Shown: positions 2,552-25,970 of the stretch, piece by piece
Numbering within the stretch: position 1 is the first letter of the stretch
Layout: every line of letters starts with the position of its first letter
NCBI GenBank assembly: GCA_002633005.1
Contig: NMRA01000013.1
Span: 1,550,185-1,614,184 of the forward strand
DNA: 64,000 nucleotides
Source of the DNA: Phoronis australis
Lineage: Eukaryota > Animalia > Phoronida
Direction: 5' to 3'
Notes under the pieces: generated by a model
Seen by the model: the letters and a program-made list of their open reading frames with translations, nothing else
The model's database searches: none
Told to the model about the DNA's origin: nothing
Position numbers and translations under genes: made by a program

Positions 2552-3744
2552 TACGGTGGCCCGAAAGTATCATCGCTACTTCAGTTTATTAATTTTTTTA
2601 TTTTTCCTTTTCCACCTAGGTGGAAATAATTCAACCTAGGTGGGAACTATTTTCACCTGGGTGGAAACTATTTTCACCTAGGTGGAAATTATTTCAACCT
2701 AGGTGCAAAATATTTTCACCCGGCTGGAAACTATTTCAACCTAGGTGGAAACTATTTCAACCTAGGTGGAAATTATTTCAACCTAGGTGAAAATTATTTC
2801 AACCTAGGTGGAAATTATTTCAACTTAGGTGGAAATTATTTTCACCCGGGTGGAAACTATTTCAACCTAGGTGGAAATTATTTTCACCCGGGTGAAAATT
2901 ATTTTCATGCTTGTACGCCGTTTGGTTAACGTGGCGTCATCTACTTTCGCTAGGAACAAGTCACGTGTCAAGCCATAGCTGCACACCCTTTTGTAGCACT
3001 CTAAAAACAATGCTCTTTGTTTTGTTTATTCATGTCAATCGGTTAGATCATTCTGCCACCACATGTTTGCAGACATATGTGTTAAAAGTGTTAGCATATA
3101 CAGGACAATCTGTGCAAGGAATTTGTATCCTCTTGTGAATCCATAAGATGTGATTCACCGTACGTCTTTTACCATTTGTGGGATATTTATAACACTATCT
3201 GTGCCTTTTGTTGCTAGTTGTGTAACTTTAAGTCTTTGAAACCTGTCAGCACGGGAAGGGTGAGGCTTTTGGACAACAACAATAATCTGTCATTTATTTA
3301 TCGGAAATTTCTCAATATTCTATACCATATACTATATTTGTTAATGGCTTGGGTTCGTTGTTGAAATCCGGCAACTTTATTCAGAGAGTTGTTTTGGAAC
3401 TAGGAGTAATACGTAATCACGCTGTCTCTGTTAAAGTCCGCGGCAAATCCAAGAGGCAGATAAGACGCCGACATTGCAACCAAATCTGAACTTTGTTGAA
3501 CAAAATGGCTGGCCCAATCGGCCTTCACCTACAAGACTTCATCCAATCACAACACAGATGAAAATAGGTGCCCGGATGTATAACATTTTCACTCAGGTGA
3601 AAATAATTTCCACCTAGGTTGAAATATTTTCCACTCGGGTGAAAATAATTTCCACCTAGGTTGAAATATTTCCTCCAAGGTGGAAAAGGAAAAATAAAAA
3701 AAATTAATAAACTAAAATAGCGATGATACTTTCGGGCCACCGTA
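2552..3744. mobile_element. Non-autonomous IS3EU-like DNA transposon with long TIRs
   Basis: Termini TACGGTGGCCCGAAAGTATCATCGCTA...TAGCGATGATACTTTCGGGCCACCGTA. Perfect 6-bp TSD TCGTGA at 2546-2551 and 3745-3750. No transposase ORF. Confidence 0.85.
2608..2908. repeat. Subterminal tandem array of ~21-bp quasi-palindromes (TTTCAACCTAGGTGGAAATTA), mirrored at ~3585-3685
   Basis: Roughly 14 head-to-tail units on the left arm and fewer inverted units on the right arm. No unique spacers. Confidence 0.85.
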
Positions 3745-4522
3745 TCGTGACCTTTGGTCTGCTAACAAAAATTCTCGAGTTTTCGCATTCTCTTGTAACA
3801 ATCGCGAAAATTTTAAGATCCTTCGGTGTTTTTCGAAACGTCCGAAACATTGACAATCTAAATGTGACCTCAACGTGTTCCTGGAAAAATCAAAACATAT
3901 CTTGTAAATTCGCAAGATCTAGTCCAGTTTCAATTCCAGAGTATTCAAAACCACGAACCAACGAAATATGGTAAACAACAAGAATTCGGGGATTTTAAAA
4001 AGCCAAGGTTGTGGTTTGTAAACAAAGCCTGCCCACGGGACGGTGTCTGAGGCTGACTATTAAATGTAGCGTTGTGGTTCGTTGAGTGTTCATTCTTATA
4101 CTAACCTTAAACTTCGTTTGTGTACAGCGACGATAACTCAACCTAACTTTTTAACTAATTGGTAGCTGGAATTATTGTTGTCTGTCGGATGTGTGTCGTC
4201 CCCATGGCTCTCCCACACTCCACTCCCCCACCCGGTGATGTCGCTGCGCGGGTAGTCTCTCCCTGGTCGTTACCGGTTATGCCGGCCTATCTTTGTACAA
4301 ACCCTGCCCGTCATTGGTAGGCCATGGCAAAACACTATATATAGTGCATGGTATGTTGTTAAACGAACGTGTTCATATGAGGCTTTATTATAGAACCTAG
4401 TGTGTTGTCACGCGTGTGAACAGTTAATTCCACGTGATTCAAACAAATTTTATGAAAGACATGCTTAGTCAGTGACGTGTGTTTTAGAAAGCAACGACTG
4501 TCAGCGTAAATTGCCGTAGTCG

Positions 4523-5774
4523 TTATCGGGGCTTTCCAAGAAAGGCACACTTCAGTACAAAGTCCGGGGTATTCTCAGTTTGCCTTCGTCCGTTGGCGCA
4601 TATTTCCTCGCAGAATTCCTTGTCCTTACAACCTTCGAAAGCCTTGCCGTCTTTTAAACACTTCCTGATTGTTGCGGGAGTTTCCTGTTGGCATAAAAGA
4701 AAAATTAGTCGTCATCGATCTCAGTCTACTTAAGTGGGTGCCTTTCGTCAACACAGTACTCTCACCCACTCATTCGCCCGGCCCGCTCGATAAATGCATG
4801 AAACTCTAAGAATTGATTCGCGCGCGGAATCCGAAGCGCGTAGCGACGAGCGGAGGGAAGGTCGGGAGGGGATTTCTCTCCTCCCGTGTAAGATTTTTTT
4901 GTAGATGATTTCGTTTTCCTGGCGTCGTTTTTTTATTTTATTTTTCATAGTTTTGATCCTGTCCCTGGAGGGTTTAAGCCCCCTGCTCCTCCCCCCCGTA
5001 GATCCGCCTCTGAGGCATCAGCGAGAATTGTCGATTTGCAAAAAAAATCACAGTGTTTTGTTGTTTTAAAGCTCACCTGGTCAACGCTTAGAACTTTAAA
5101 AAGTCTATCCCATACAATAAACCCAAAGCGTTTTGGCAATAAAACTGACAATGGACTTTTTATGAACAGTTGACTTGGACAAAACATGAAGATTAAGCGC
5201 GTGCATCTGTGTGTCGTGAACAAAAATATTTTTTAAGATGCGTCTTCACAAATGTAGGCGCACGGGCCTAAATGCGGCGGGCAACCAAACTTAGAGTTTC
5301 AACGAACAATTGTGTTCATACCTTCGAGCTTTCTATCAATGGTCTGCACCACTTCATACACTCAGGATCTTTGGCACATATGGATGTCGGCTTGCCTTCG
5401 AAGAAACAAGATGAGAATTCCTCGGAGTTTCCTGATATGTATATGTTACTGGTAAACGTGGCGTTAAACGAGAAGCACCATGATCGACCACTTTTCCCAA
5501 TGTTGCAAACTTCTGTCACCTCGGAGCAGTTGAGACGATTTTTCAGTCCATACACGCATAGCGAAGGCGTAATGGTATTCAAGACGTACATGTGTCGGAC
5601 ATAAGGGCAGAAAGTTTCACACCAAAAGTTGCGTGATCCATCTGGGTTTCGACAAGTTTCGGCAAAATCCAGATATAGGCGTTGACTCGGGTCAAAGACG
5701 TATGTCGCCGAAGAGCCGCCGATGCAGTAAAATAAAACGACGATTATGAAGTGGCGTGACTTTATGGGCGTCAT
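4523..5774 (-). CDS. Secreted cysteine-rich four-repeat protein, paralog A (204 aa; coding exons 5322-5774 and 4523-4684)
   Basis: Acceptor tttactttcag lies directly before the ATG at 5774. Signal peptide MTPIKSRHFIIVVLFYCIGGSSA. Phase-0 donor AAG|gtatga at 5321. Acceptor ccaacag opens the exon ETPATIRKCLKDGKAFEGCKDKEFCEEICANGRRQTENTPDFVLKCAFLGKPR*. Minus-strand AATAAA at 4384-4389. The 16 mature Cys align with paralogs B and C. Confidence 0.85.
4800..5012. mobile_element. 3' remnant of a hAT5-like MITE in the intron of paralog A
   Basis: Ends in CCCCCCCGTAGATCCGCCTCTG. The internal GGGAGGGG..CTCCTCCC hairpin resembles 10135-10160. No left TIR found. Confidence 0.5.
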
Positions 5775-7689
5775 CTGAAAGTAAATCTGTACCAGTTTCA
5801 GGAGAAAATACAATAAATCAGGTCCAGAAACTGTTGAAGAGGTGAACTGCTATGAAGTTATACGCTCATGGTTTTCTTTAAACTGTGTCGTCCTTGACAC
5901 CCACTATGAGGTAATTAGAGGTGATGATGTTCATTTTTTACACTTTCGGGTTAATAGTTAAAGGGGATACAAAACTCACCGTTCTGTCCAACAAATGATC
6001 CGCTTAGGACAAGAAGTATGTGTACTTCGACTCACTTTGAAACCTGTAAAAAACTAACACCCGCCCCCATCAATTTCAGTCAAGGCCTGGTGTGAATATA
6101 TTTTTTGAAAAGATTTACAAAAGCAAAGGCATGATTTTCAAAATGATCGGTAAAAAATAAAAAACAGCATCATTTTGCTCCTCTCGGGTGGTCTTTCTGT
6201 TTTGAAAAGCTGAGGAACTCAAAAATACCGCACCACCGGCTCGAATTTCTGAAAAAAAAAACACAGATTAGACCAGAACTAACTTTGTAGTTTTGACTTT
6301 AGTTCCATACTGAGAGGAAAAGTGTTTTTTGTGTTTGCAATAAACTGATGGTTTGTCATTTCTTGATACCATGCTTGAACGATTGTCGAAGGATGTCGCC
6401 GGTATGTCATAAATCGGATCGCGCAGACCGAATTTTAACTCACAATTATGTCTCAAATTAAACAGACGACATCAGCCGCAGTTCTTTGTTCCGCTCGGTA
6501 GACCAGCAACACTAGGCTTGTCATGAAATTACTGTCAAGCTATTCAGTAAAAATGTTTGCGAAAATAATTTATTAGAACTAAAAGTAGTAAGTAGAGTAT
6601 AAAAATTTAAAGCTAATGCAAAAATCATTGGAATATTATGAAAACAAGCCGAATTCACACAAGCAACCACGAACGACTTACCTTTGACGAAATGACTTGA
6701 ACACTATCATGGACCAGCATAAAAAGTATTAGTGTTTTTTTTTTAACGAAGACGCAGATGCCCGACAATTAACCTCAAATAACATTTGCAGATTTCACAC
6801 AGGCTCGATTTAGTCATTAGACGGTTTGTTGAGAACTAAAGGGAGGCTCACCAACCGCAATTAAGATATCACTAAAATAGCGATCTTAAATGTCATCAAC
6901 AATTTCTAGTCGGGTGTTATAAAAAGGATAGTGACGTCACGGAAATAATACGTTCAGGTATCAGCGAAACATTTGTTTAATTCTGTAATTTTTAAATGTT
7001 CGAGTGTTATTACTCGGAAGGTGGTTAACTCACAAGTCTGGAGCGTAGTACATTGCGACGCAAAATAATACGCAAATGAAATTTTAAACAATTAACGTGG
7101 AATTTTTTTTTGCAAAATCGCCATGTGTAATTCAGAGACACGGAGGTATTGCCTAAGGTGTTAACTTTGTTTTGTTAATTATATAACTTTAAATATTGAA
7201 ATAACTTCCAATTGTTTTGAAAATGATAGCATTGCTTAAAAACAACACAAAGATTGGACATTCTATTATAAATAGAGGGAAGTCACGAGATGAGGCGCTA
7301 CTTTTTGTGTTGCACCTCGCTGATAAGGGAATTTGGTATATAAATCCTTTTGATGCATTGCATTAAATGCTCATATTAAACATCGCTGACTTCGACGTTG
7401 GCGGTTTTTGTTCCACTATGATGCAATTCACTTTCAATGAAACCTAGATCAAATCATTCTGTTAAATCACAGAATATTGGGGCCCATTCCACATTAAATC
7501 GTCGCGTGTTTTGTATGTCCGTTACCAGCTACTCTAATGACCTTGTGACCGCAGCCGACTAGTCGTTAGTCTCGAAAAATGTCTGCCTCCAGAGTTCAAA
7601 TTAACGAAATTTTTGAACTTACACATCATCGTGAAACGATCCCCAGTTCTTTGACAAGGAATGTTTTCAACAAGTCAGAGATAATATTG

Positions 7690-8079
7690 CGGTCTGAATT
7701 CAGTTCTTCGTGGCAAACTACAGATGGATATAGTTATATTTGCCGATAGTTCAGAAATAATAAATTTTTGAAGTTGGTGCACGCCTAAACAAGATTGTAA
7801 ATCTCAGCCTCCTCGTTTCCAAAAAGTAGGCCAGCTCTGCACCCACAGCTGTCAAGACGTTCCTCACAATATCGTTAAAGCTGAACATAGGGGCCCCTTT
7901 AAATCCTTTTGGAATAGCACTCGCTGTCCGTTATGGAAAGCCCGAGGACAACGTTGAACTATAAATGAGATGATTTTAAAATCTTTGACGACCATGATAT
8001 ATTGGCACTTTGCTGAACATGTATTGTGTCCTCAATAAATAAATTTAATAATAATAATAATAATAACAACAACAACAAG

Positions 8080-8143
<64 letters not shown>
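7690..8143 (+). mobile_element. Possible decayed LINE (CR1/L2-type) 3' end with (AAT)n tail
   Basis: Broken frame ...RGPFKSFWNS... resembles the RGPxLWNSLP C-terminus of such ORF2 proteins. It is followed by AATAAA and an (AAT)n microsatellite. Confidence 0.35.

Positions 8144-8145
<2 letters not shown>
8046..8145. repeat. (AAT)n/(AAC)n microsatellite
   Basis: Directly visible trinucleotide run. Confidence 0.95.
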
Positions 8146-8575
8146 GATAACGAGTAATACTAGTGATAGTGGTAATAGTATTAATAGTAGTAACAGCAGT
8201 GATAGTAACGTAATACTAATAAAAATGATAATAGGTCGCCAAATTCATGTCGTTTCAGCCCGTGCCGTTCCTGCAGAAGATGTATTGGAAAAGTGCAGCC
8301 CAAAAGGGTGCTTTTTCACAGAAAAAATACTCTCCAAAATGGTGCCATTTTCGAAAAAAATATACCTAAAAGGTGGCTTTCCTGAATGTCTGGAACAGAA
8401 GTAAATTTTTACACAAATTAGTCTCTAAATGGGTCACTTTTTTGTTCGAGCCCACTCTCTAAACGGGTAGGTATTCAAATTTTTCTGGTGGCACTCCTCG
8501 TCGAAAAATACTCCAGTACCTCCCGGCCGTGTCAGATACCACTTGTTCGTGATTTTGGTCATTTTCTTTACAATA

Positions 8576-8748
8576 TGACGTGGGTTTCGTAAAATGTAAC
8601 AATGGTACATTTCTTGCATGTGCGTTCGACGTGAAATGTAACAACTACGTAAAATTTAACAACTTGTTACACTTTAGGAGAGGCTTAGCAACGTAAAATG
8701 TAACGATTTTTACATTTTACGAAATTCCTACATTTTACGGCGTATCAA
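8576..8748. mobile_element. Short MITE-like element built of CGTAAAATGTAAC motifs in both orientations
   Basis: Four direct CGTAAAATGTAAC-like units are followed by inverted TACATTTTACG units. Confidence 0.45.
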
Positions 8749-9330
8749 GGCTCGTCGATTTCCATCGACCCAGTTATTTGACGTAACTAGCTTACGCAAA
8801 GCCAATTCATGTCACAGACGAGGTAAGTCGAGATCAGTTCTGCACTAGTATACCTACATGTATTTGACCTTAGCGATAGATACTCGTTAAGCTGTGTATG
8901 GTGTAATTGTTATGTTGATGCATTCATTGAAAATGACTAAACAACAATGAGTACCGTCATCGAAAGCAGCTGCTCCCTTACTCCACACCAAAAGTGTCTA
9001 ATGCAGGCACTACGAAACAGCTAGTTCATTGTCAAAACGCGTTTTATAAAACAAAACTCCTACAACATGTTCTGCCCACTGCGCTTAAGCTGCATTTTCT
9101 TGTTTAACTGGCTCATCTAAAAACGAAAATAGAATTATATTGTTTACTCTCACAAAATTGGTCTCCTAATGGTCCTTACGGTCCCGTGATCCAGAAAACA
9201 ACTTTTCTCATATCGGGTTTCCCAGCCGCTGTAGAATGCTATTTCTGAAATTAACCAGATCATCGAAACCACAGCGACTCAAAGGTACGGCTTCAGAGTT
9301 TTAACACACACACACACGCACGTACACAAG

Positions 9331-10269
9331 CATAGGCGGATTTAGGGGGGGCCCAGGGTGCCCGGGCCCCCCCTTTGGCTACCGCAAAAAATAAAACAGT
9401 AAGAGCGTAGGGAAATGGTGATTTTATTAATTAACCCCGGTAATTAAAAGTATACGGGGGCTAAAATCCAATTTCAAGTGTCAAATTCGGAACACGGCGC
9501 ATCCGTAACGGAGCTATGGCTAAGTATAGGCTCTTCCGCGATATCCCAGGCGACCGGCAGTGGCGCTGCGCACTACGACTCCGTTTCCGTCGTCTGCTCC
9601 ACTGTGCAATGAAGAAAATTTACTTCATTTTTTAAAGAAAATGGAATCTGAGTGACGATGAAAAAACAGAAGCTGCTGGCAAGTTGTGAATTTTAATCGA
9701 AGCCTTAGTGAATCACTCAGAATCGCGCAATACTCTCTTTGTCAAACCTTATCATAAGACGATTTCCAAAGCAATCCAGTCATTATTGCCAACACGAAAA
9801 ATGGATTTGGTCTTTTGGGCATTTGAAGACTATTTCAAATACGACAAATTTGTTAAGAATTGATGGCACAAAATATAAAACGTGTAATACGCATTACAAA
9901 AAGAATTAGGTTTCGCGCGCAAACGCTGTGAACCATAAACAAGTAGGTATTTTAGTATCAGTTTAGTAGTAAAGTCGTGATGGTGTAGTGGTAACGCACT
10001 GGAAAATCCAGTTTTTCCTGTTTCACACGTTCTCCATTTTTTTGTTTTTTTTTTGCCTTTTTTTCTTGGATAATACTTCAGGAATCAAGGAAAATGCTTG
10101 ATTTTTAGAGGTAAAAACAGAAAAATTTCCTGGGCGGGAGGGGGGCAAACCCCCCTCCCGACCTCCCCCCATTCGGTGCTATGCGCATCTACAATCGTTC
10201 AGTTTGCGCAAATGCTTGCAGCCGGACATAATGTTGCCCCCCCCTTGTGACATCCTAGATCCGCCACTG
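9331..10269. mobile_element. MITE, hAT5-like (5-bp TSD)
   Basis: TIRs CATAGGCGGATTTAGG...CCTAGATCCGCCACTG. ACAAG duplicated at 9326-9330 and 10270-10274. Internal GC hairpins. Confidence 0.8.
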
Positions 10270-12027
10270 ACAAGCACACACTCACATGTATCTTTTTATA
10301 TGCTGAGAACTTGATTGTTTTCAAATTTATTCTTGGTTTATAAATCTCTCTGGTTTGCACAAACGACAAAAGATGATTCGGAACTGGTCAAGCGTAAAAA
10401 ATCCGACTCAGGTTGACGTCTGCACCCAGCGTCCACTCATCCAGAAGTGAGCGGAATTTTACTTTCGCGATACACGAAAGCAAACACTCGAAACTTCCTG
10501 TAGAGTCACATAACACAACTTCACAAGACCACCAAAGCAACAATCGGAAAGGGAAGTCCTCGAACACGTGGTCGATGGGTTAGAATTTGGTACCATGGAA
10601 GACAAAAATTAATTTGTGTCCCCCCTTCTTCCATATAATGGTTACCGGCTTCCTACGGGCATACGTTTACGCCATGCGGAAGAATGCCACTCTTCAAAGA
10701 TCTGCGCCATAACTCGAAATGTTCGTGATAGAATCTCAGAGGTTACAGGGACTATAAATTTGACACGCTTTTATGAGCGATTTCAATTAGTTGATTACCC
10801 ATTCGGGCAGTAGAGGCAGTAAACATGGTAATTACGCCTGGTCTGGCAATGGAACTTAACGCCATTAGGTAGTGTATAGACGTGACATCGCATGTTACTG
10901 GCGAAACAAAGGTTTGGGGTTTTCTCAGGAATTGCCACAGACCCGAAAATGAGCGAGGTTTTTTCGGGTCGGTCTATCACGACCTAAAAGCGATATGTGT
11001 CCGCGCGGCCTGAACTTTCGGAAGCTAAGGGAAACATACCATATACGTTTTCTACTTCCACTAGACAGGAGAGTTGAATTCGGGACGTGGTAATTGCTCA
11101 GTGCACAGTGTTGGTACCGCTCGCTTGGGAGTACAGCCTGATTGTTTCTACAGTAGTTGACGCGAAAATGAAATTCTCTGTTGTTTGAAGAGAAAGAGCG
11201 AGCGCGAGTGAAAACTGATTAACAACCTTCATGAGTTTTTATTAAGCCATGTAATTTCAGATAAATTTGTGTAAGTGGTATATACCAAGTGATTTATCTT
11301 TAGTAATGCATGTCTCTGCATATATGTCAAATATACAACACCGTGCCCATCTCTTCGTTTGACAGCTTTTTTAAAGCCACTCAAACTATTGGAAATTTCT
11401 GATACTAGGCCTCAGGGCTTATACACGGAAAATGTTTCTACAACCCCAAATGTAACATAGATCAGGCCTGTAAACGTTAGAATGTGCCAACGGCATCAAC
11501 ATGCGATGAGAATAAATGCACGGAGTTTACCGTATGGTTCAGATAAGCGTTTAAAAAGTTGATATTTTATCTTGGCGAAATTTGGAAGCAAAAATTTAGA
11601 GTTATATTTCGTCTCTCTTCCTTCTGGGTTTTCTTCGACTTCGATGAAACCAGCCGAATTGTGACGAAACTCCTTAACTTTTTGAAATACCTTCTGCCTA
11701 GTTTTAGCTTTACATTGTTCATTTCGAGAAACTATAAAACACAAGAATCTAGCTGTTAATTGTGGTTCCAAAAGTATGCCATGGTCCTTTCTTAAAATAT
11801 TCCCAATACAGCCTGGCCTACGTGTATACTAGTTGGGGGGAGGGGAGTAGCTCTCGGTCGCAATTTAATTAAACTGAACATGCAAACCCCCGCCACATTG
11901 AAACATGCAAGAAAGCACAGGAGAATATAGGATGGAAACTATTATTATTATTCAACGATGTACACGCTATTATCTGAAATGTCCTAAAACATGTTATGGG
12001 CCCATTTTGCAGAGAACGCCTTTAGAT

Positions 12028-12954
12028 TTAAGGCCACGGCGCGGTGCCCTTTATTCCGCATTTGAATACGATTTCACTGGCGTAGTGGCTTTGTTTCTCG
12101 GACGTGTCACATACGTCTTGACAGAACTGTTCGTCGTTGCAGTCCGGTGGAGGTTGCCCGGTTTTCATACATCCGACAAGAGCCGAAGAGGCATTCTGAA
12201 AATAACGACGTGACTAATGAAAATATCGTATACTTAGTCATTATGTAGGCTCGCTGCTGTGATCGCACTTTTTCGTTGAAAATGAAGGCGTGATCATACT
12301 CGTTTAATACGATACAAAAAAATGTTGGCCAGGAGGGCCGGGTGTGTCCGTCTGAATCCGCGCCAGTAATTGCAGTTTAGTAACAATTAAATAGTGACGC
12401 AGGAATTACCAAAACTAAATTCGAATATTTGGAGGTGTAGTGCTGAAATTTTCAACGTTGTGTTTTAACATTTAAACACTGAGAATGTTGACACGTTGTT
12501 TGCATCATATGTATGATAACACACAAACCTGGTAGCTCCCGTAAACCATGTCGCACCAACGGATGCAGTTGCGGTCCTTGTCACATCCCAGTGGTCTCTC
12601 TCCGTCGGCGCATATGTCCCATTCCTTGGGTCTTTGGTGTAAGTAGAACATGTTCAGCTGATCATACACATGGGTGCACCAATCGTTACACGCGTTGGTC
12701 TCTTTGGAGCAATCGATACTGGACTTCATTCCAAACGCACAGGCTACCGGCTGCCGCAGTGAGTAGAGGAACAAGTCGTGTAAAAATGGACAGAAGACCA
12801 TACAATAGAAATCGCGATCGCCATTTTCGTCCACGCAAACGTCTTCATATAAAACATCAATCTCGTGCTGACGTTTGACTCTCTTATGCGCGTTGAAGCC
12901 ATCGCTAGAAACGAGAAGCATCAGCGCGACTGCCACGTACACTAAGCGATCCAT
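12028..12954 (-). CDS. Secreted cysteine-rich four-repeat protein, paralog B (197 aa; coding exons 12529-12954 and 12028-12195)
   Basis: Signal peptide MDRLVYVAVALMLLVSSDG, then KRVKR-Q. Acceptor ttgttttag at 12973. Phase-0 donor CAG|gtttgt at 12528. Last exon after ttttcag reads NASSALVGCMKTGQPPPDCNDEQFCQDVCDTSEKQSHYASEIVFKCGIKGTAPWP*. Same Cys scaffold and intron position as A and C. Confidence 0.88.
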
Positions 12955-14483
12955 TCCTCTCTGGGGGACGTCCTAAAACAAAAAAGCGCTCGCGCATTAT
13001 TGTTAAACTTTTAACACCGAGGTCTCGCTATGTCATCGAAGTCGCCCAAGGTGTTTGTATATAATTTCTATTGATACATATCAAAATGCAGAAAGTCAAG
13101 CTTCATATGTGAATATTGCTGATAGGTATTTACATGCTTTACTTGATACGCCATGCCTTAAATTGCGTTTTACTTCACATATCATGCCATAAATTAGCAC
13201 ATGTCATCAATATCGCTTTAATTAACTTCTTTTCTACTAAAAATTGAGAAACAAACATTAGTTTTTGATTAAGCCGACAAACTTTGGAACTATCACTAGG
13301 GAATTTTCTTCATAGCTTCTTACCGGTACACTGACTACATCATATCTCACCTTTGAGATTTCTCAGTTCGCTGTTCTTGGAGCTAACTTCATGTCAAGTG
13401 AGTATTCCACGATGTTCGATTTCCAACGCCCTTACGATGTAATTATTGCATGTCTTTGAACCCGCATTCAGGCAAGGGCAGGTTTAGCGAGTCGATTGCC
13501 GTCCTAGTTTGAGTCGCTGGTGATTATTATCGGCATCTGCTTTGCCTTTAGGATTTTCATAAGCGATATTGTCGGCTATTAAAAATCGCGTCGTGTACTC
13601 TTGCCTTATGCTATCTTTTTTTAAAAATTCAACAGTTATTTTAATAGAACCTCTAATTTGAAATAGATTTCCCTGGTATGGGCTCTATCAGGGAACGAAC
13701 CCGAAGTTGTCACTGATACGATCTGACGAAACACCTATCGTTTCAGTGCAGTTGCATTTGGAGGGCCAAACTTTCAGGAAAAAATATCAGTATGTCAGCT
13801 GAAAGTGTGGGAATACTTTATCTAAAATACCAAGAATTAGTGATGTTTCTGTTGTTTTTCCACAAACGTCAATGGAAAAATTGCAACAAGGTACATATAA
13901 AAGTCAACAAAACTTGTTCGATATAACTTCACACGCTTTAGCGGCCATTTTTATTTTCTTATACGAACAAATAGTATCACGCAGTTACAAAAATTATTTC
14001 TTACACCCTAGAATTTCAGTGTGGGGGCAAGAACGGCAGACGACCGCTATGTGACAATAATACCCGCAGGAGTGGAGTAATTGAGCTATTGATAATTGAT
14101 ATAGTCGAGAAACGGTAGTTCAGTGGTGACTAAAGTCACGTAAGGTTTTGGCCGGATTCTAATAAAATATGAAGCCTTGACTTTGTCAAGAAAGGTATCA
14201 AGGTAGGTAATGCCACTCTGTATTCTTTTATGTATTACTGTTGTGACTGGGGTTTTAAGTTTCTAAATAAGTAAGCATATTTCGTACAACGACCATGCGT
14301 AGTATTAGAAAACAACGATGTCTCAAAATATTTAGGGTGAATTCTCCGGGGCGACGAGCCACTGTATGGGTTTGTTTATATTCGACCCCAGTTTTACTGT
14401 ATGATTTGTTCATGATTTCTATTTATTGTTCCGCTGATCTATAGAGGTAGTACTGATATTCTAAAGTAATTATTTACTTTCAG

Positions 14484-15811
14484 ATGTTATTTCGACTGTC
14501 CGTATTGATCGGCGTGTTATGCACACTGACGTTAGCATACGTCGATAAGCACGTCGACTTTCTGAAATTGTGCAACGGGGACACTTACTGTGTCAAATTT
14601 TGCCCCTACATGCGCTCAATCTATCTGTCCGCTCTACCCGTCGTGGCGCCCTGTGCCCTTGGGGTCTCCCATATCGTGCGCTGCGACGAGGAAAGGCACG
14701 TGTGCTCCCACTGGTGTGCTCACCTGCACGCGCAGATGCACGAGACACTGGGCAAACCGGCGGAATGGGAGCCGTGTGCTAGTGGCGAGCTACCCGATGG
14801 CTGCGACCAGGATCCAAACTGTGTCAAGTGGTGTGACTACGTTAAATACGCTTACCAGGTAAAAGTTACATCTTTGTATAATACTTTGCATGCACATACT
14901 TGTACTTAAATTGGGACACTTCCAACTAATTACTTATGAACGTGACAATTCTGAGTCACAATTTATTAAAAATTCCCAAACCTAGTAAGCCGGGCCATAG
15001 AAAATGAAAGATCAACAAAGATTGAAAGAGTTTAATTTTGTAAGAGGTGGCCATAAAACAGTCCATTCTAGTGAAATTCTTTTTCTTTTTGTTAAAATTT
15101 GAGGTGCCTTATGCATGGCTAAATAATAGTTTGTTACTTGTACATTAGGTAGAGAATTAAACAAGTTTACTATTAAACAAATACTAAGTCCAAGTTTCAT
15201 GATTTCGACTCTCCGGCTGTGCTGGCTGCACAATCAGCGGCATTGACCCCGGGAGTTTTTATTAGTGTTCCAACATTTGAAGGCGACGAGATCGAGTTGG
15301 AACATTTGTTTCGAAGTGGTGACACAGAGACTAACATAATACATAAATTGATTTAAGGAGGGGGTCCCCACCCCCACGGACACCACGAAAAAAGCTCGCC
15401 GTCGGTATTAAACAATTTCTATGATGCTTTCTCTTTCAGAAACTGTGGTTAGGCCCCCATACGACATCCTAAATCCGCCAGTGCTGTATCCTTAACAGCG
15501 TACACAAATCCATCGCCTATGTTTCTGCTATGAAGAGGATTTCCATTGGTTTTATTTAATTGATGTAGGTGCTCGGCCCCTATAAAGATAGGCGATCGAT
15601 GTTTCGTGCCTTTTTCACTGAGACCCCTTGTACATGTTTATTGTAGAACACGACTGCTCAAGTCCGGAATTGTTTGAAGACTGGCGTTGCTCTTCCAAAC
15701 TGTAACGATCAAGAACTTTGTCAAGACATCTGTTCTACCAGCAAAGAAGGCATGCTCAGCCCCAAAGTTCCTCTCTTGATAACGAACTGTTTGGCTTTAG
15801 GTCATCCGTGA
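14484..15811 (+). CDS. Secreted cysteine-rich four-repeat protein, paralog C (179 aa; coding exons 14484-14858 and 15647-15811)
   Basis: tttactttcag|ATG, the same context as paralog A. Signal peptide MLFRLSVLIGVLCTLTLA. Phase-0 donor CAG|gtaaaa at 14859. Last exon after ttattgtag reads NTTAQVRNCLKTGVALPNCNDQELCQDICSTSKEGMLSPKVPLLITNCLALGHP*. Confidence 0.88.
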
Positions 15812-16703
15812 ATGTGACAGAAATTTGCTTTAAAAATGAATAAGATTACCGTAAAATCTCAACGTTAATTTTGTACTCAATGCGCGCAACCAGGGGGAGT
15901 GGACAAAAATTAAGGTCCGCCTCAGAGAAATAAAAACTACGAAAAAATGCAGAAAACGAGACAAAAGTCCGTTAAAAGGCAGGAACAACCAAATTTCGGC
16001 GAACGCACAATTCATGGCTCTGGACGTAGTACCCCGTTAAGAAATCTCAGTAAAAGGTCCACGCTCTCAAAAATTCGAGCCCTCATTTTTAAAGCTGCCG
16101 GGTGCGCGCCTGTCAAGTGACATTTTTGACATTTCCATGACGAATATGTATTAAGATCAACTCTTTTATATGTTAAAGGTTTGTACCATAGCTGCCACCA
16201 GACAGCAATTGTGGGCATTCCGAAAATATTAAAAGCTTTTAAAAATGAAAAAAGGTTACTTTGTTAATTACTTTTAGTTGCTGAAGTTGGTGAAATTTTA
16301 TAATACGAATCTTCGTTTTGTTTAAACCCATGCACTTAAAACAGTACGGTAATGTTTTATTGGGATATCTGCATGCGTGAGGTTTGGCCAAAAAGAACAA
16401 GAAGGAAAATCAGTCTGAAGGTCGTCAGTCAGAAATGCACGGTCAATGAAATGATTTCAGCTATTTTCAGATAAATCACTGTCTTGTGTATCATACGCAA
16501 ACACTAAAACTATGTGCAAAACAACTTTATTCTATGATAATTAAACAGTGTCAATCTCATCACTTAGATACTTTAAAGTAAAGTAGATCCTGTGTAGTAA
16601 TACCTTGACTTACATTATTACAACTGGTCAGTGTGAAGTGCAACTATATGAAACAATTTTAGCATGAACTTGTGCCTGAGAGACCAGTGATTATGCACAA
16701 AGA

Positions 16704-16915
16704 CATTGGCATAGCCACTGGGAGAAGGGCACAATGGGTCCATGGCCTCCTTGTTCGGTACAAAAGACCATCTCAAGGTTTAAACTCATTCTAATTTTGC
16801 ATTTGCCTGCTCATTGCAAAGTGCACCCGAGTTGAATCAAACCTCCATCTCCCCCAGGTAACCAACAAATTCGCATTTAGTGCCCCCCTGCTGAATACTT
16901 CCGGCTATGCCAGGG
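16704..16915. mobile_element. Degenerate hAT-like MITE (second copy at ~19245-19457)
   Basis: Imperfect TIRs CATTGGCATAGCC...GGCTATGCCAGGG. No clear TSD. Confidence 0.45.
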
Positions 16916-17172
16916 CATACAAAATACACTACACAATGCAGCAGCTTCCCATACTCCGGATGCGTTTTGTCAAATTGTTCAAAGACGTGGAATTCGCATT
17001 TTACAAAACTACTTCACAAGTGGTAGTACTGAGCAGCAGCCCTTGGCCAAAACTCAGTCATAACATTTTTATTGCCATTGTTTGTTGCCACAAGGAAGTC
17101 AAACCTTGAAAAAATAAAATGTGAGCACTTTAGCAGTTCTAGTGGGACATAATTGAAGAGTTATGGTATATA

Positions 17173-17176
<4 letters not shown>

Positions 17177-17209
<33 letters not shown>
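17177..17209. repeat. (GT)n microsatellite running into the assembly gap
   Basis: Directly visible. Confidence 0.95.
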
Positions 17210-18243
17210 NNNNNNNNNNNNNNNNNNNNNNNNNNNNNNNNNNNNNNNNNNNNNNNNNNNNNNNNNNNNNNNNNNNNNNNNNNNNNNNNNNNNNNNNNNN
17301 NNNNNNNNNNNNNNNNNNNNNNNNNNNNNNNNNNNNNNNNNNNNNNNNNNNNNNNNNNNNNNNNNNNNNNNNNNNNNNNNNNNNNNNNNNNNNNNNNNNN
17401 NNNNNNNNNNNNNNNNNNNNNNNNNNNNNNNNNNNNNNNNNNNNNNNNNNNNNNNNNNNNNNNNNNNNNNNNNNNNNNNNNNNNNNNNNNNNNNNNNNNN
17501 NNNNNNNNNNNNNNNNNNNNNNNNNNNNNNNNNNNNNNNNNNNNNNNNNNNNNNNNNNNNNNNNNNNNNNNNNNNNNNNNNNNNNNNNNNNNNNNNNNNN
17601 NNNNNNNNNNNNNNNNNNNNNNNNNNNNNNNNNNNNNNNNNNNNNNNNNNNNNNNNNNNNNNNNNNNNNNNNNNNNNNNNNNNNNNNNNNNNNNNNNAGG
17701 TGCCTTATGCATGGCTAAATAATAGTTTGTTACTTGTACATTAGGTAGAGAATTAAACAAGTTTACTATTAAACAGATACTAAGCCCAAGTTTCATGATT
17801 TCGACTCTCCGGCTGTGCTGGCTGCACAATCAGCGGCATTGACCCCGGGAGTTTTTATAAGTGTTCCAACATTTGAAGGCGATGAGATCGAGTTGGAACG
17901 TTTTTTTTGGAAGTGGTGACACAGAGACTAACATAATACATAAATTGATTTAAGGAGGGGGTCCCCACCCCCACGGACACCACGAAAAAAGCTCGCCGTC
18001 GGTATTAAACAATTTCTAAGATGCTTTCTCTTACAGAAACTGTGGTTAGGCCCCCATACGACATCCTAAATCCGCCAGTGCTGTATCCTTAACAGCGTGC
18101 GCAAATCCATCGCCTATGTTTCTGCTATAAAGAGGATTTCCATTGGTTTTATTTAATCGATGTAGGTGCTTGGCCCCTATAAAGATAGGCGATCGATGTT
18201 TCGTGTCCTTTTCACTGAGACCCCTTGTACATGTTTATTGTAG

Positions 18244-18408
18244 AACACGACTGCTCAAGTCCGGAGTTGTTTGAAGACTGGCGTTGCTCTTCCAAACTGT
18301 AACGATCAAGAACTTTGTCAAGACATCTGTTCTACCAGCAAAGAAGGCATGCTCAGCCCCAAAGTTCCTCTCTTAATAACGAACTGTTTGGCTTTAGGTC
18401 ATCCGTGA
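18244..18408 (+). other. Second copy of the terminal coding exon of paralog C, inside the duplicated segment
   Basis: Near-identical to 15647-15811, with one Asn->Ser change (AAT->AGT) and a silent TTG->TTA. Acceptor and stop are intact. Confidence 0.75.
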
Positions 18409-21116
18409 ATGTGACAGAAATTTGCTTTAAAAATGAATAAGATTATCGTAAAATCTCAACGTTAATTTTGTACTCAATGCGGCGATCGAGCATGCGCGCA
18501 ACCAGGGGGAGTGGACAAAAGTTAAGGTCCGCCTCAGAGAAATAAAAACAACGAAAAAATGCAGAAAACGAGACAAAAGTCCATTAAAAAGGCAGGAACA
18601 ACCAAATTTCGGCGAACGCACAATTAATGGCTCTGGACGTAGTACCCCGTAAGGAAATCTCAGTAAAAGGTCCACGCTCTCCATGATGAATATGTATTAA
18701 GAGCAACTCTTTTATATGTTAAAGGTTTGTACCATAGCTGTCACCAGACAGCAATTGTGGGCATTCCGAAAATATTAGAAGCTTTTAAAAATGAAAAAGG
18801 TTACTTTGTTAATTACTTTTGCCGAAATTGGTGAAATTTTATAATACGAATCTTCGTTTTGTTTAAACCCATGCACTTAAAACAGTACAGTAATGTTTTA
18901 TTGGGATATCTTCATGCGTGAGGTTTGGCCAAAAAGAACAAGAAGGAAAATCAATCTGAAGGCCGTCAGTCAGAAATGCACGGTCAATGAAATGATTTCA
19001 GCTATTTTCAGATAAATCACTGTCTTGTGTATCATACGCGCAAACACTAAAACTATGTGCAAAACAACTTTATTCTATGATAATTAAACAGTGTTAATCT
19101 CATCACTTAGATATTTTAAAGTAAAGTAGATCCTGTGTAGTAATACCTTGTCTTTACATTATTACAACTGGTCAGTGTGAAGTGCAACTATGAAACAATT
19201 TTAGCATGAACTTGTGCCTGAGAGACCAGTGATTATGCACAAAGACATTGGCATAGCCACTGGGAGAAGGGTACAATGGGTCCATGGCCTCCTTTTTCGG
19301 TACAAAAGGCCATCTCAAGGTTTAAACTCATTCTAATTTTGCATTTGCCCGCTCATTTCAAAGTGCACTCGAGTTGAATCAAACCTCCATCTCCCCCAGG
19401 TAACCAACAAATTCGCATTTAGTGGCCCCCTGCTGAATACTTCTGGCTATGCCAGGGCATACAAAATACACTACACAATGCAGTAGCTTCCCAGTAGTCC
19501 CGATGCGTTTGATGCAAATTGTTCAAAGACGTGGAATTCGCATTTTACAAAACTACTTCACAAGTGGTAGTACTCAGCAGCAGCCCTTCGCCAAAACTCA
19601 GTCATAACATTTTTATTGTTTGTTGCCACAAGGAAGTCAAACCTTGAAAAAATAAAATGTGAGCACTTTAGCAGTTCTAGCGCAAAGAGAGTTGAAGAGT
19701 TATGGTATATATATATATTTTGCTTACATTCAAGTAAATCATTAACATTTGAATTGAGTTCATTTTCAAAATGATTCCCATCAAACAAAATATTCCCCTT
19801 TCAGGTTACCTCAGGCCATGTAATGAGCACTTCCACCAATTTACAGTCAAAGACACTTATAAAAAAAAGATTTAATTGTGTTTGGTTTAACGCCATCTTG
19901 ATTTTTTATTTTTTATTTAAAAATTCAAAATTCGTCCTATTTCACAGCACCCTGTATTTCGTTGACAGATTTGTACAAGAACTGTTGTCATCAAGAAGCC
20001 TGCTTGAAATCTGATATCCAGACTCTATTTGTGTGGAGCCCAGTAATTACTGCATTAGCGATGATTTTACGGCAATAAAACACTGGCTGAAATAAATTTG
20101 GGTATAATGGACTAAAAGTGGTGATTTTTCAAACTACCTGAATTCATCCTAAAAAGTTATGTTAGGGTCCTTTCTACATAAAAATATGGATAAAAATTAG
20201 ATGTGTTAGGTTTCGTATCTCTGACGTCCCTTGATGAAAGGTTTTTGTAACTCTTTGAACCTATAAATCGTGATGCCGGACAAAAAGCCATGGGAACGCT
20301 TAGTGATGGACCAGACAGATATCTGGATTTAGAAACTGCTGTTGTCTGGAGTTGTAAATAAACAGGAGATTCTTGTAATGGCTTTGAACATTATGAATGG
20401 GCAGTATAGTAGTAACGCAATAAAATGCTCAAATTCTCAGGCAGAGCCAGTAAACAGGCACGATCTCTACAAGCCAATTTAGGTCGAGTCGTAGGTTTCA
20501 ACGACGCTGACAAAGTTTGATCAGTTATCGAGCATACACAGTTAAAACTAAGCTGATGACCTGGTCAACTCAGTGATGACCTGGTCAACTCAGGTGCTCA
20601 AATGAAGGACCACACGAGACCTAGACAAGCCTCCGTCTGCCGGAGGTGGGATGACCTATAATCACCATCAAACTAAGTAGGTTATTTTCAAAAGATTAAC
20701 ATTAGATAAATTAAATACCACAGGCAGTTCTCTCTAATTTTACTTGTGTTACAAGAATATTATTAAATGAGTAATTAACAAGATACAGATACCCACGAAT
20801 ACAATAAACAGTCTTTGCAAATGAGAAGCAGGTCGTCTAAGTTGGGGCAAGACTTTGACAGAACTATCCCAGTTTTTGCTGTAGCACAATGATGCCCTTG
20901 TAATGCTTCTCTTAAGCTGTGGTGCTAATGTCCCTAATGAAAATTTCACTCAGAAAAGTACCGGACACACGGTAGGTCACCCGAGTTTGTTTAGTTCGCA
21001 GTCTGCCAGAAGAAAAGATTCAGTGTAAAAATCGTCTATTGCAAATCCCGATGACAGTACTGCACCATGAAAGGAAGGCAATCGGGAATGTTCCAACGTC
21101 ACCAAGTACACAATAA

Positions 21117-23278
21117 TCAGTCATCATCCTGCTTCTTGGCCTTCCTCGTCTGTGGTGTAGTCATTTTCTGAATTGTGTCTGCAGTTGTTCTCTCTGCCTT
21201 AGTCACCATACTGAAGTCCAGTTCCCGCAGCTGAGGCAATTTGTCCAGTACGTATAGTCTGTAGTGCTGTAAGGAATGAAAGTGGGGCAGATTTATTTCC
21301 TGTTTTCACTTTGCGTCTCCTAGAAATGTGTGTGACAAACGTCACTGCATAGTCTAGTTTATGCGAAATTATTCGTATTTCCTCCATGATACAGTTTTTC
21401 AAAAACTAAAGGAAAGCGCAGTACCAGACTGCCTGCAATTATTTTTTTACCATGTTCCACTGTTTTGAAGAGTCACGTGCCAATTGAAGAGTAATTACAG
21501 TTGAGAAGTTAGCATGCGCTTAATACAATGGATCTGCAGTGTACAACAGAGTGAATAAGACAGTTCAGAAGTTTTAGCCACAAGTGATTGCTACAAAAGC
21601 AATCTTAACCTTACCTTGATTTGTTCAATGGGATTCCCGTGAAGACTGAGTTTCCTTAAACTTGTCATTTGTGCTAGCTTGTCGACCTGTTTAATATCTT
21701 GAATATGGTTTCCATGCAAGTAAAGGATTTGCAAGTTTTTGTAACATAATAAAACCTGAAAAAAACAGATAACACTAGGTTTGAATTTAATTTCAGCAAT
21801 TGACAATTTAATATTTAAAACAAAGATGAAGCAAAAGGTAAATTTCATTATCATCAAAATGCCTTCAAAATTACGTCATGATTGTAGTGCAGTGTACATC
21901 ATGGGGAGAACAATGTCAGGGTGGCCTGCTGTCATTAATGTCCCTGAGTTTAGTGCGGCTGTAAAACCATATTGCACTCAAGAAGTGATCTCCTTATTTA
22001 CCCCACTTATCGTTATAAAATTTGTTTTTTGCTTTTTACACAGAACTGACAGTTTGTTATTCCTTGAGACCATGCATGCTTGGTGAATAAAGACAATGGC
22101 AATAAGCCAACTCGCAAAGTCTGGTCTTATTCAATAACAAAATGTCGGTTCTTTCTAAACCCTGAAATCAACTCTAAATTGACTAAGGCGCAAATTGAAA
22201 CTAATTTTGCATTGGTATAAGGACTAAATCAAAGCTGTTCTTTTGTGTTGGAAGGTGCATTTATTGCAAATTTAACAAAAGCGTACACACTTAACCAGCC
22301 AAGTCTCAAAAGCAAACAATTAATGTGAACCAACCTCATCGATTGTTGTGAGATCGTTGGATGACAAGTCCAACCATGCCAGTTCATTAGGCTCAGCCAT
22401 GAGCTGATCTATGGTGGAGCACAGTGTGCTGCAGTCTGCAACATTATTGTTACACAGCTTCAAAGACTTGCTCAGAGACTTGCCATCCTTCGAGGTTGTC
22501 TTCTGCTTCTTTGGGCTTTTCCTCGGTTCTTCATGCAAGCAATCTGTTACACATCAAAACATGCCTTAATGCAGTAGAAGTATAGATCATAGACAGAAAG
22601 ATTTGAAACTACAATATTTTCTCATGGAATTCCCAGAGGAGGCGCCACTCTCTCCCTGTGTATAACTCGGTTTCTGATTAGAGAGCTGATGATGTACTTG
22701 ACGGAAGTAAAATGTGCATCACAACAAAAGCCGCAAGTGAATAATGATGTCACAGCCAATAGTGGTAGTCTCGACTTGCGCACAATATCACAGATTTTAT
22801 GCACTGAGAATATCCAGAGTTGACATTGGCGGACCATATATTATAGTCTATGGTAAAATGTATTAATGTGCTACCACTAAAGACTTCTAGCACATGGCCA
22901 GCGTACCCCAACGAGGCCAACCTGAGAATTGCGATAAAACTTCTTGAGTGCTGGGTGATGTCAAAAACAACACTACATCTTGTGGCTAACATGTAGCAAT
23001 GGACAATAAAGAATTTAGAATGTCTTAGAGGGTCCATCCAAAAAGAAAAAATTATGAAGCTCTAAAATTTTTTTTCTCTTTTGGTTGTGTCCATAGGGAC
23101 CCCAATAAATCTGCCTAAGAAGTGTTCAATAAGAATGAAAATATTATTTTTCATCACACATACCTTCGAATGTAGTTAAATTCATGAAAGAGAAATCCAA
23201 TGGAGGGATCGTTCCTTGAAATTTTTGTCCTTTTGTTGAGTCTTTGCTCTCCGGTTTCCTGGGCGATTCTACAGACAT
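21117..23278 (-). CDS. LRRC51: Leucine-rich repeat-containing protein 51 (204 aa; exons 23164-23278, 22335-22543, 21615-21755, 21117-21266)
   Basis: Recognised motifs PPLDFSF, SKSLKLCNN, LAWLDLSSNDLTTID, NLQILYLHGNHI, LRKLSLHGNPIE and the LRRcap YRLYVLDKLPQLRELDFSMVTKAER. All introns are GT-AG with consistent phases 1,0,0. Confidence 0.9.
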
Positions 23279-24539
23279 CTTGACAACTGTATGGTCAATT
23301 TCTGAAAATAAATAAATCGAGTGTACTGTGGTGCTACTACTGGCATTTTTACCAAACTCTTCTTTACTTCTAAAGTCTGTTTTCTTGTCAAGTGAACGCA
23401 ATCAAAACTTTGAGTTTTAAGTCACTGCCTACAACAACAGTAAACAAATATGACTTAACAAACAAAGTCTAAATTCAACCATAAAAAACAAGAAAAACTT
23501 GTGATGTCAATCCGCGTACAGTGCAGGGTCAGTAATTGCAGTAGCTGCAGAAGACTGAGATATCGCAGACAGAACAGTCCCCATGTGCCAAAAGGGTTAT
23601 TGTCAAATATTTGTGGGTTAAGCCTGGGGTGGTTCTTGAGATTGATGAGACAAGACAAATATGAACTTGGCAACTGTCCCGATTTTGGCTGACAATCTAG
23701 CTTTATGAAGCTCCATCACCCCTAAGCAAAAAACAATTAAAAAAATGTGATGTCAATCCATCGGGATTTCGCGATCAGAAACTGCAATACAGTAGTGAAA
23801 TAGTTCAAATTTTCAAAGTCTGAAATGTTCCATTTCCATTAACAAACAGACAGTGGTCCTCTTGCTGACAGCCATCTCTTTTCCCTAACCCCGAAACAAA
23901 AGAAAGTGGTCATCTAAGTCCAGCTGCTGTGGTAAGTGGATACTGAAATCCCAACCGGTAAGAAGTATAAAAATCACAGTTGCTGGTTGGTAAATGAGAT
24001 GAGGCAACTCTAATGAAGGTTATTTCGAGTTTGGTTTACAAAACAAATGATTGAAATGATGTTGAGCATTGCTGAACACAAATTCCAGAACACGAGGAGT
24101 GTTTCTGAGGGTTAAGTCCAGGAAGTATTCCTGACATATGATGCTGGCACAGCGCCTGTTCTACAGAATTTGTATCACGCGACTTCTGCTCTTCAGGTGT
24201 GTCGTATAGTCGAGTAAAGCTCTAAATTGCTCATCAGAATGCAATTTTTAGTCTTTTTTGTTGTCAGATCGGTTTGGACACCAGACATATCAGAACCCCT
24301 CCATTGAACAAGCGGATTTTCCACACCATCTCAAACTGAGAGTCAGAGGGCAGAAGTTTGTGCTGCTAACCGCTAGTTATGCCCGTTTTTCAATTCAGAA
24401 TAAAGATTAAAGTCACTGCTGCACCCTGATAAGTTATACTGAATTTTAGATATTTAAAGTCTCCAGACAGACAAATACATACAATCAAACTTAAGGTGTC
24501 GACAGAAAAAACACAATCACCGACACAGCTCAAATGTAA

Positions 24540-24660: not shown

Positions 24661-24870
24661 GAACCCTGTTGACGATCGGTGCTTTTTGTTTTGGAGTGCT
24701 AGTCTATTTTTTCAAAGAAGGTAAACTGGATTTCACACGTCTGTTCTGACTTAATCGGTCTTCGGTCCAGAAAGCAAAACATGCATGTTTTAGAAGTTGC
24801 CTGATTCTCAAAATTTGGGACCGCTGCAGTCAGACTCAGAGCCAGAGCCAGAGGCAGAAGCACCTTTCAG

Positions 24871-25747
24871 CCCTCGACGATATGATATAATAAAGATAAA
24901 GGCATACAACTGCTATTCAGTATGGCCGGCTGCCAGGCACTTCAGGAATAACTCAAAGCATGTCAAATCTGGGAGTGATTTATGTCCCATTTTTTCCGTT
25001 CTGCGACTGCAGCACGTTCACGACACTAGTTACATTTGTTGACATGGAAACCAATAAATAACATAAATACCTCCATATTTACCTAGTTCAATCGGCAAAA
25101 TTCACGGCAAAGCGTAGATCCCGAAATGTTCCAATTGGCATCAACTAATGCGCATGGTCATTAAGGCCGCTGACAACATCACCAAAACGCTTACGCCAAC
25201 TAAAAACAGCAACATTATCTTTGTACTACTCCAGGAGCATACTGATTGAGTACAAGAAAATAGGTCAACATTTCAAGGGGACCTTCCAGTTTCCTTCCAT
25301 TTGCCCAAATCATGCTTGTATGTGAATTAATTTTTGTATTTGATTATTGTATTGGATTAGAATGTAAACAACAACATTGTAGTGTGAACTGCTCCATCAG
25401 TTTACTCTGCCTCTATTGTTGCTGTTTTTAGGCGATGTAAGCATTCTGAAGATGTTGCGAGGAGCCTTATGAGCATGCGCATTAGTTGATGCCAATTGGA
25501 ACATTTCGGGATCTACGCTTTGCCGTGAATGTTGTCGATCGAACAAGGAAAATCTGGAGATATTTATGGTATTTATTGGTTTCGATGTCAACAAATGCAA
25601 CTAGTGAACAGACTGCAGACACAGAAAAACGTGACTTAAATTACTCCTAGGTTTGACATGCTTTGAGTTATTGCGGAAGTGCCTGGTGGCTGGCCATATT
25701 GAATAGCAGTTGTATACCTTCTCTTTAAAATAGTATATCGTCGAGGG
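24871..25747. mobile_element. Foldback/MITE element with ~340-bp inverted arms in MTIF3 intron 1 (piggyBac-like CCC...GGG ends)
   Basis: Arm 24871-~25215 is the reverse complement of ~25410-25747, for example CACGGCAAAGCGTAGATCCCGAAATGTTCCAATTGGCATCAACTAATGCGCATG. Flanks tcag and ctaa may be a decayed TTAA. Confidence 0.8.
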
Positions 25748-25970
25748 CTAATTAAGTGTGCCTGTTGTCAGGGTAAAGTAACTACTAGTCTACACAAGTG
25801 TTCAGTAGCTGTCTCGGGGTTAGAAAAATGGTTGCCATCAAGACAGCATCGCTAATCATTGGGGACACTTGACATCTACTCCTTGCAACCCTATCTGGTT
25901 TGTCACAGTAAGTACATCATCATGTCCAATTGTTTTCCAGAACATTGGTCGCAATTCCCACGTAGCTGTG

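Follow-up and report, generated by a model that had tools for sequence, protein, structure and literature searches.

Three Paralogous Genes of Phoronis australis Encode Orphan, Putatively Secreted Proteins with Repeated Cysteine Spacing

Gene Structure and Expression

The DNA studied here is a stretch of 64,000 nt from the Phoronis australis contig NMRA01000013.1 (hereafter the window, in whose numbering all positions are given), and it contains three paralogous genes, A, B, and C, which encode proteins of 204, 197, and 179 aa with 16 mature Cys in each. Together these constitute an orphan family that is real, conserved, and lineage-restricted, and of which B and C are expressed. A preliminary description of this DNA had proposed that a hidden second coding exon is spliced onto each of three open reading frames to yield proteins of these lengths, and this holds, as all six coding exons have an open frame, GT..AG ends, and phase 0 (Table 1). 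The three genes were also rightly taken for paralogs, in that they match each other by tblastn both in exon 1 (E 1e-12 to 2e-27) and in exon 2 (1e-8 to 1e-9), at 27-40% identity over aligned codons, and the claimed 16 mature Cys were counted in every one of them.

Four RNA runs (X1 to X4, X1 being one contig) were aligned over 11930-15880, thus covering genes B and C. The B junction 12529/12195 was seen on the expected strand in all four runs (one contig, then 2, 7, and 19 reads) and the C junction 14858/15647, likewise on the expected strand, in three of the four (one contig, then 6, 0, and 10 reads), which bears out both predicted joints. RNA counts were modest, at 70, 111, and 161 of 12.8, 11.3, and 11.0 million records, with B, C, and antisense reads pooled. 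Because the RNA also located non-coding first exons for B and C, absent from the earlier account, the two genes are seen to start ~740 bp apart, head to head, and the region between them is a possible shared promoter. An alternative donor of the first exon of C lies after 14270, in X1 only, and the 3' untranslated region of B extends below 11930. Unspliced minus-strand reads were observed as well at 13118-15880, in X2 and X3 and not in X4; they run antisense to C, its intron included, and possibly represent read-through from a convergent leucine-rich-repeat gene (see below) or an upstream start of B. Gene A is a predicted gene, put forward on its intact frame, its conserved splice positions, and an acceptor shared with C, the acceptor directly 5' of its ATG being identical to that of C over 11 nt. 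The site at 6681, the sole consensus donor match within 5775-9900, may mark a non-coding first exon of A.

Table 1. Features of the three-gene cluster, in window positions.
Feature	Position	Strand	Remarks
Paralog A, coding exon 2	4523..4684	-	53 aa + stop; 5 Cys; junction predicted from splice sites and paralog alignment only
Paralog A, coding exon 1	5322..5774	-	151 aa; predicted signal peptide; 11 mature Cys; from paralog alignment and splice sites
Paralog A, candidate non-coding first exon	6681..6720	-	putative; donor-like site at 6681; upstream bound a guess
Paralog B, last coding exon	12028..12195	-	55 aa + stop; 5 Cys; junction 12529/12195 seen in RNA
Paralog B, exon with ATG at 12954	12529..12972	-	142 aa; predicted signal peptide; 11 Cys
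Paralog B, non-coding first exon	13351..13387	-	intron 12973-13350; joint in X3 (4 reads) and X4 (22); 7 molecule ends at 13387 in X4
Head-to-head region between apparent 5' ends of B and C	13388..14129		~740 bp; molecule ends at 13387 and 14130 in X4
Paralog C, non-coding first exon	14130..14202	+	intron 14203-14483; joint in X2 (2 reads), X3 (6), and X4 (14)
Paralog C, coding exon 1	14484..14858	+	125 aa; predicted signal peptide; 11 mature Cys
Paralog C, coding exon 2	15647..15811	+	54 aa + stop; 5 Cys; junction 14858/15647 in X1, X2, and X4, not X3
~2-kb direct duplicate of 15102-17177	17698..19716	+	95-96% by blastn; holds a second C exon 2 at 18244-18408

Cysteine Frame and Sequence Features

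Three frames in the window contain at least two C-x4-10-C-x3-C motifs, versus none in each of 20 shuffles. The preliminary description had divided each protein into four units of ~45 aa, with a C-x(5-10)-C-x3-C frame throughout and a phase-0 intron common to all three genes after unit 3, and each of these statements stands in part. The C-x3-C is found in 11 of the 12 units, since unit 2 of A carries a 6-residue insertion (C-x6-C-x9-C); a Cys gap of x15-22 is found in all 12, the next gap is x9 in seven of nine cases and x8 in two, and a Gly lies 3-4 residues after every fourth Cys (12/12). The intron is shared and in phase 0, but its position is inside unit 3, between the third and fourth Cys. 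With the Cys positions held fixed and the remaining residues shuffled, units 1-3 were alike beyond Cys in three of nine comparisons (z of 4.8, 5.2, and 5.7; a fourth, I versus II, gave 1.8), whereas the likeness of unit 4 beyond Cys was weak or none (z of 0.45-2.4, n = 5; exon 2 against the exon 1 profile, E 0.14 by hhalign). As read from the sequence, the fourfold repeat is real in Cys and Gly spacing and only partly apparent in the remaining residues. The units are probably offset by one Cys, which would give a module C-x8/9-C-x5/6-C-x3-C, in which register the intron would fall between modules III and IV.

The invariant residues of the family are Cys, Gly, Pro, aromatics, and a few D/E/K, and none of the six exons contains an adjacent Cys pair (CC). 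Hydrophobicity peaks of 2.9, 3.0, and 2.6 at the three N-termini, taken from a Kyte-Doolittle hydropathy scan (window 11) and not from a signal-peptide predictor, agree with the claimed signal peptides, which are to be regarded as predicted only. The mature proteins would span 161-181 residues, with net charges of +2, -9, and -5 and isoelectric points of about 7.9, 5.0, and 5.9 in the three paralogs; B and C contain 6-8 His and 7-8 Tyr, and residues 26-30 of B (RVKR-Q) form what we take to be a furin-type site under the R-x-K/R-R rule.

Homology Searches

Queries were single exons or parts of exons, the spliced full-length protein not being among them. No credible match was obtained in Pfam for the six exons or nine module pieces at E up to 10, with HMMER filters that drop weak matches, in NCBIfam, or among PDB sequences, where module profiles returned 0 at E up to 10; enzyme families in Pfam and NCBIfam were likewise without a match. 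No credible relative appeared in a word-index sequence collection or, for B exon 1 as the only query, in Atlas, and matches were found in none of 26 viral contigs and in one of 339 metagenomes, the latter spurious. A profile built on exon 1 only, in the mature form of all three paralogs, found no true homolog among 1,835,955,588 cluster representatives; its single match, a bacterial repeat protein, was rejected as being without the Cys frame. In a leave-one-out control scaled to a library of that size, a profile of any two paralogs recovered the remaining one (E 1e-10, 7e-16, and 7e-23), and relatives at ~27% identity should therefore have appeared if present. No description of the family was found in the literature, and the available text of four nemertean toxin papers (PMC11768458, PMC12846013, PMC9132205, PMC7460313) and of two shell-proteome papers (PMC4453069, PMC13425148) contains nothing with this Cys frame, although their supplements could hold relatives. 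The proposal of a lineage-specific family without a named domain is thus upheld, no true homolog having emerged from Pfam, NCBIfam, PDB sequences, or the cluster representatives.

Selection, Age, and the Duplicated Last Exon

Polymorphism was assessed from the best 40 of 65 variant rows, 21 of which are coding in B or C. These comprise 13 synonymous and 8 non-synonymous differences (ratio of non-synonymous to synonymous polymorphism, pN/pS, 0.16; binomial p 5e-5), none of the 21 changes a Cys, and the coding polymorphism is under purifying selection. Between paralogs, synonymous divergence (dS) is saturated (pS 0.82-0.87) and non-synonymous divergence (dN) is 0.59-0.77; saturated dS together with purifying selection indicates that the copies are old and constrained, with no recent diversifying burst. 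A second copy of the last exon of C, also absent from the preliminary description, lies in a ~2-kb direct duplicate (Table 1). It shows two coding differences (15669 and 15778), both of which are alleles present in the RNA reads, and exon 1 of C has no second copy; for these reasons the duplicate is probably an uncollapsed haplotype, two haplotypes having been assembled in tandem. The duplicated segments flank a gap of 488 N beside a GT microsatellite.

Predicted Structure

The model of B exon 1 is all-helical, with a mean predicted local distance difference test score (pLDDT) of 51 and the best values, 68-80, at residues 81-110, which are the C-x8-C-x5-C-x3-C stretch. That of B exon 2 has three helices at pLDDT 62, and no fold match was found for either of these single-exon models. 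The models, all-helical but weak, are consistent with the earlier suggestion that the proteins are disulfide-rich and probably helical.

Neighboring Genes and Repeats

On the minus strand, at ~21115-24000, lies a small leucine-rich-repeat (LRR) gene (Pfam LRR_4), presumably LRRC51-like, whose last exon ends near 21115 and which is convergent on C. It is head-to-head with a mitochondrial IF3-like gene at 25971-26573 on the plus strand (Pfam IF3_N, E 1e-9), and between the two is a 349-bp inverted repeat pair (24869-25217 and 25414-25749; 83%). The minus strand of ~31570-64000 is occupied by a TBC1D1/TBC1D4-like Rab GTPase-activating protein gene of many exons, pieces of which are 48-55% identical to proteins of Lineus, Lingula, Owenia, and Haliotis, the best scores being to Lineus, Lingula, and Owenia (50-55% over about 1000 aligned residues). 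A 16-row TBC1D1/4 tree groups it with lophotrochozoans (99/99) and apart from the molluscs, and joins it to none of Lineus, Lingula, and Owenia in particular. For a 55-aa exon of this gene, none of the 120 matches listed exceeds 91%, and the proteome of the source animal itself therefore seems to be missing from the collection searched. Within the gene, a ~61-bp tandem repeat (35333-35644) holds several copies of the last part of a coding exon. At the other end of the window, inverted arrays of a 21-bp unit (2550-2907 and 3572-3746), about 670 bp apart and within longer inverted repeats (87%), look like a non-autonomous DNA transposon with subterminal repeats.

Discussion

The present data allow a tentative model, to which we would give slightly less than an even chance, in which the three genes, old and restricted to their lineage, encode secreted proteins built of disulfide-stapled helical repeats; these would act without catalysis, as ligands or modulators, by binding a partner that is an extracellular protein or is located on the cell surface. 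The signal peptide would be removed, with furin-type trimming in addition in B, and every ~45-residue repeat would fold into two helices, with a short helix and a loop being stapled, in the likely folding module C-x8/9-C-x5/6-C-x3-C, onto the beginning of a longer helix. Module I would lack its first Cys and the chain end would carry a spare one, so that the ends may close on each other to give 8 disulfides; the mature Cys count is even in all three paralogs. The diverged surfaces between the Cys would suit each paralog to a different partner or charge environment. Several points weigh against this model. The structure models, limited to single exons of B, are of low confidence (mean pLDDT 51 and 62) and assign no disulfides; the acidic residues that are invariant, E111 and D127 of B exon 1 and D21 of exon 2, might serve in catalysis or metal binding and not as helix caps; pN/pS rests on the best-supported 21 coding sites, from the best 40 of 65 variant rows; and high expression in a gland may have escaped the RNA runs. 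A bolder proposal, which we regard as rather unlikely, is that the repeat of the family is an extracellular module not described before, all-alpha and with two disulfides, and that four such modules are closed end to end to form a single domain with 8 disulfides. The family would then represent either a new fold or a four-Cys relative of RECK CC, and would serve as a secreted signaling ligand or modulator, its co-regulated paralogs being driven from a head-to-head promoter.

The preliminary description had implied a toxin or fast-evolving effector, and components of a defensive or predatory secretion, that is, toxin-like or antimicrobial proteins of mucus or epidermis, would account for the predicted signal peptide, the fixed Cys frame, the tandem cluster, and the prepro-type site in B; Lineus, a nemertean, is among the nearest rows for a neighboring gene, and nemertean mucus proteomes, in the available text, contain many unannotated secreted proteins (PMC12846013, PMC11768458). 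However, pN/pS of 0.16, saturated dS, and modest expression in three RNA runs oppose the implication, as do old paralogs with no recent burst within the window, neutral-to-acidic net charge, the absence of the CC doublet of inhibitor cystine knot (ICK) frameworks, and a length beyond that of the up-to-100-aa peptides chosen in the nemertean papers as far as their available text goes, and we consider such a role unlikely. It is distinctly unlikely, too, that the proteins are all-helical disulfide carriers with a cavity that takes up a small hydrophobic ligand (a lipid, a pigment, or a pheromone), in the manner of odorant-binding or lipid-transfer proteins. A structural or matrix role in a tube, shell, cuticle, or adhesive, with cross-links via Cys, Tyr, or His, would fit the His and Tyr content of B and C, and lophotrochozoan shell matrices are, in the available text of two reports, dominated by lineage-specific secreted proteins (PMC4453069, PMC13425148). 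Such a role is improbable, as low-complexity tracts are absent, expression is modest, and the even Cys count and fixed spacing point to intrachain bonds. Slightly more improbable still is a highly diverged offshoot of a known family acting likewise, whether a Wnt or receptor modulator of RECK CC or DB type or the helical lobe of an invertebrate lysozyme, a possibility that overlaps with the ligand or modulator model. The spacing C-x9-C-x5-C-x3-C of i-type lysozymes speaks for it. So does the segment C-X3-C-X12-22-C-X9-12-C of RECK, as given in the available text (PMC12842694), which fits the x3, x15-22, and x8-9 gaps of the family; against it are the lack of a CC doublet, four and not six Cys per repeat, one phase-0 intron versus phase-1 flanks (PMC7502776), module profiles with 0 PDB sequences at E up to 10, and the absence of such a family in Pfam.

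Comparison with Known Systems

The RECK CC repeat, C2-X7-8-C-X3-C-X12-22-C-X9-12-C, forms a four-helix bundle with three disulfides and, in the available text of the two papers concerned, is reported only in RECK (PMC12842694, PMC7502776); its exons are flanked by phase-1 introns (PMC7502776). Both systems have extracellular tandem Cys repeats of ~45 residues, predicted all-alpha in the family, with C-x3-C, then a Cys at 15-22, and then 8-9 residues, although this overlap in spacing is too loose to show kinship. In the family, by contrast, each repeat has 4 Cys, with a single one in place of the CC and with 5-6 (or 10) residues ahead of C-x3-C, there is one phase-0 coding intron, and no sequence or fold match was detected; moreover, four repeats make up the whole small secreted protein, with no Kazal motifs. 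Membership in RECK CC was rejected, the CC doublet, the six Cys per repeat, and the phase-1 flanks all being absent. The DB module (PF01682) has CC doublets and 6 Cys per half, or 12 per module, arranged as tandem helical repeats in which a Cys is followed a few residues on by Gly and then by Cys ... C-x3-C; no paralog has a CC, and no Pfam match was found at E up to 10. The i-type lysozymes are also secreted and Cys-rich, and their helical motif resembles module III, but in the family the motif is repeated, Pfam and PDB sequences gave no match, and the models are without the strand-rich catalytic region. According to the available text, i-type lysozymes contain 12-20 Cys (PMC4755537), and destabilase has 14 Cys and a catalytic dyad of Glu34/Asp46 (PMC10126035). 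Nemertean mucus peptides (nemertides, ICK, and other conotoxin-type) are, like the family, secreted, Cys-rich, lineage-restricted, and found in a lophotrochozoan, and the ICK-type members have, in the available text, a C-C-CC-C-C framework (PMC11768458); the family is 2-3 times longer, lacks the CC doublet, and has internal repeats and purifying selection. As an ICK-type peptide toxin it was rejected, with 161-181 mature residues, 16 Cys, and no CC.

Little-studied invertebrates commonly have orphan families of secreted, Cys-rich proteins, and fold and function are here predicted only. All-alpha folds are under-represented among mobile extracellular modules (PMC7502776), and if the model is true, a conserved, expressed, repeated helical disulfide module from an under-sampled lophotrochozoan lineage would add a rare extracellular all-alpha module to these systems, and would also offer a compact, stable scaffold and a handle on lineage-specific secretions.
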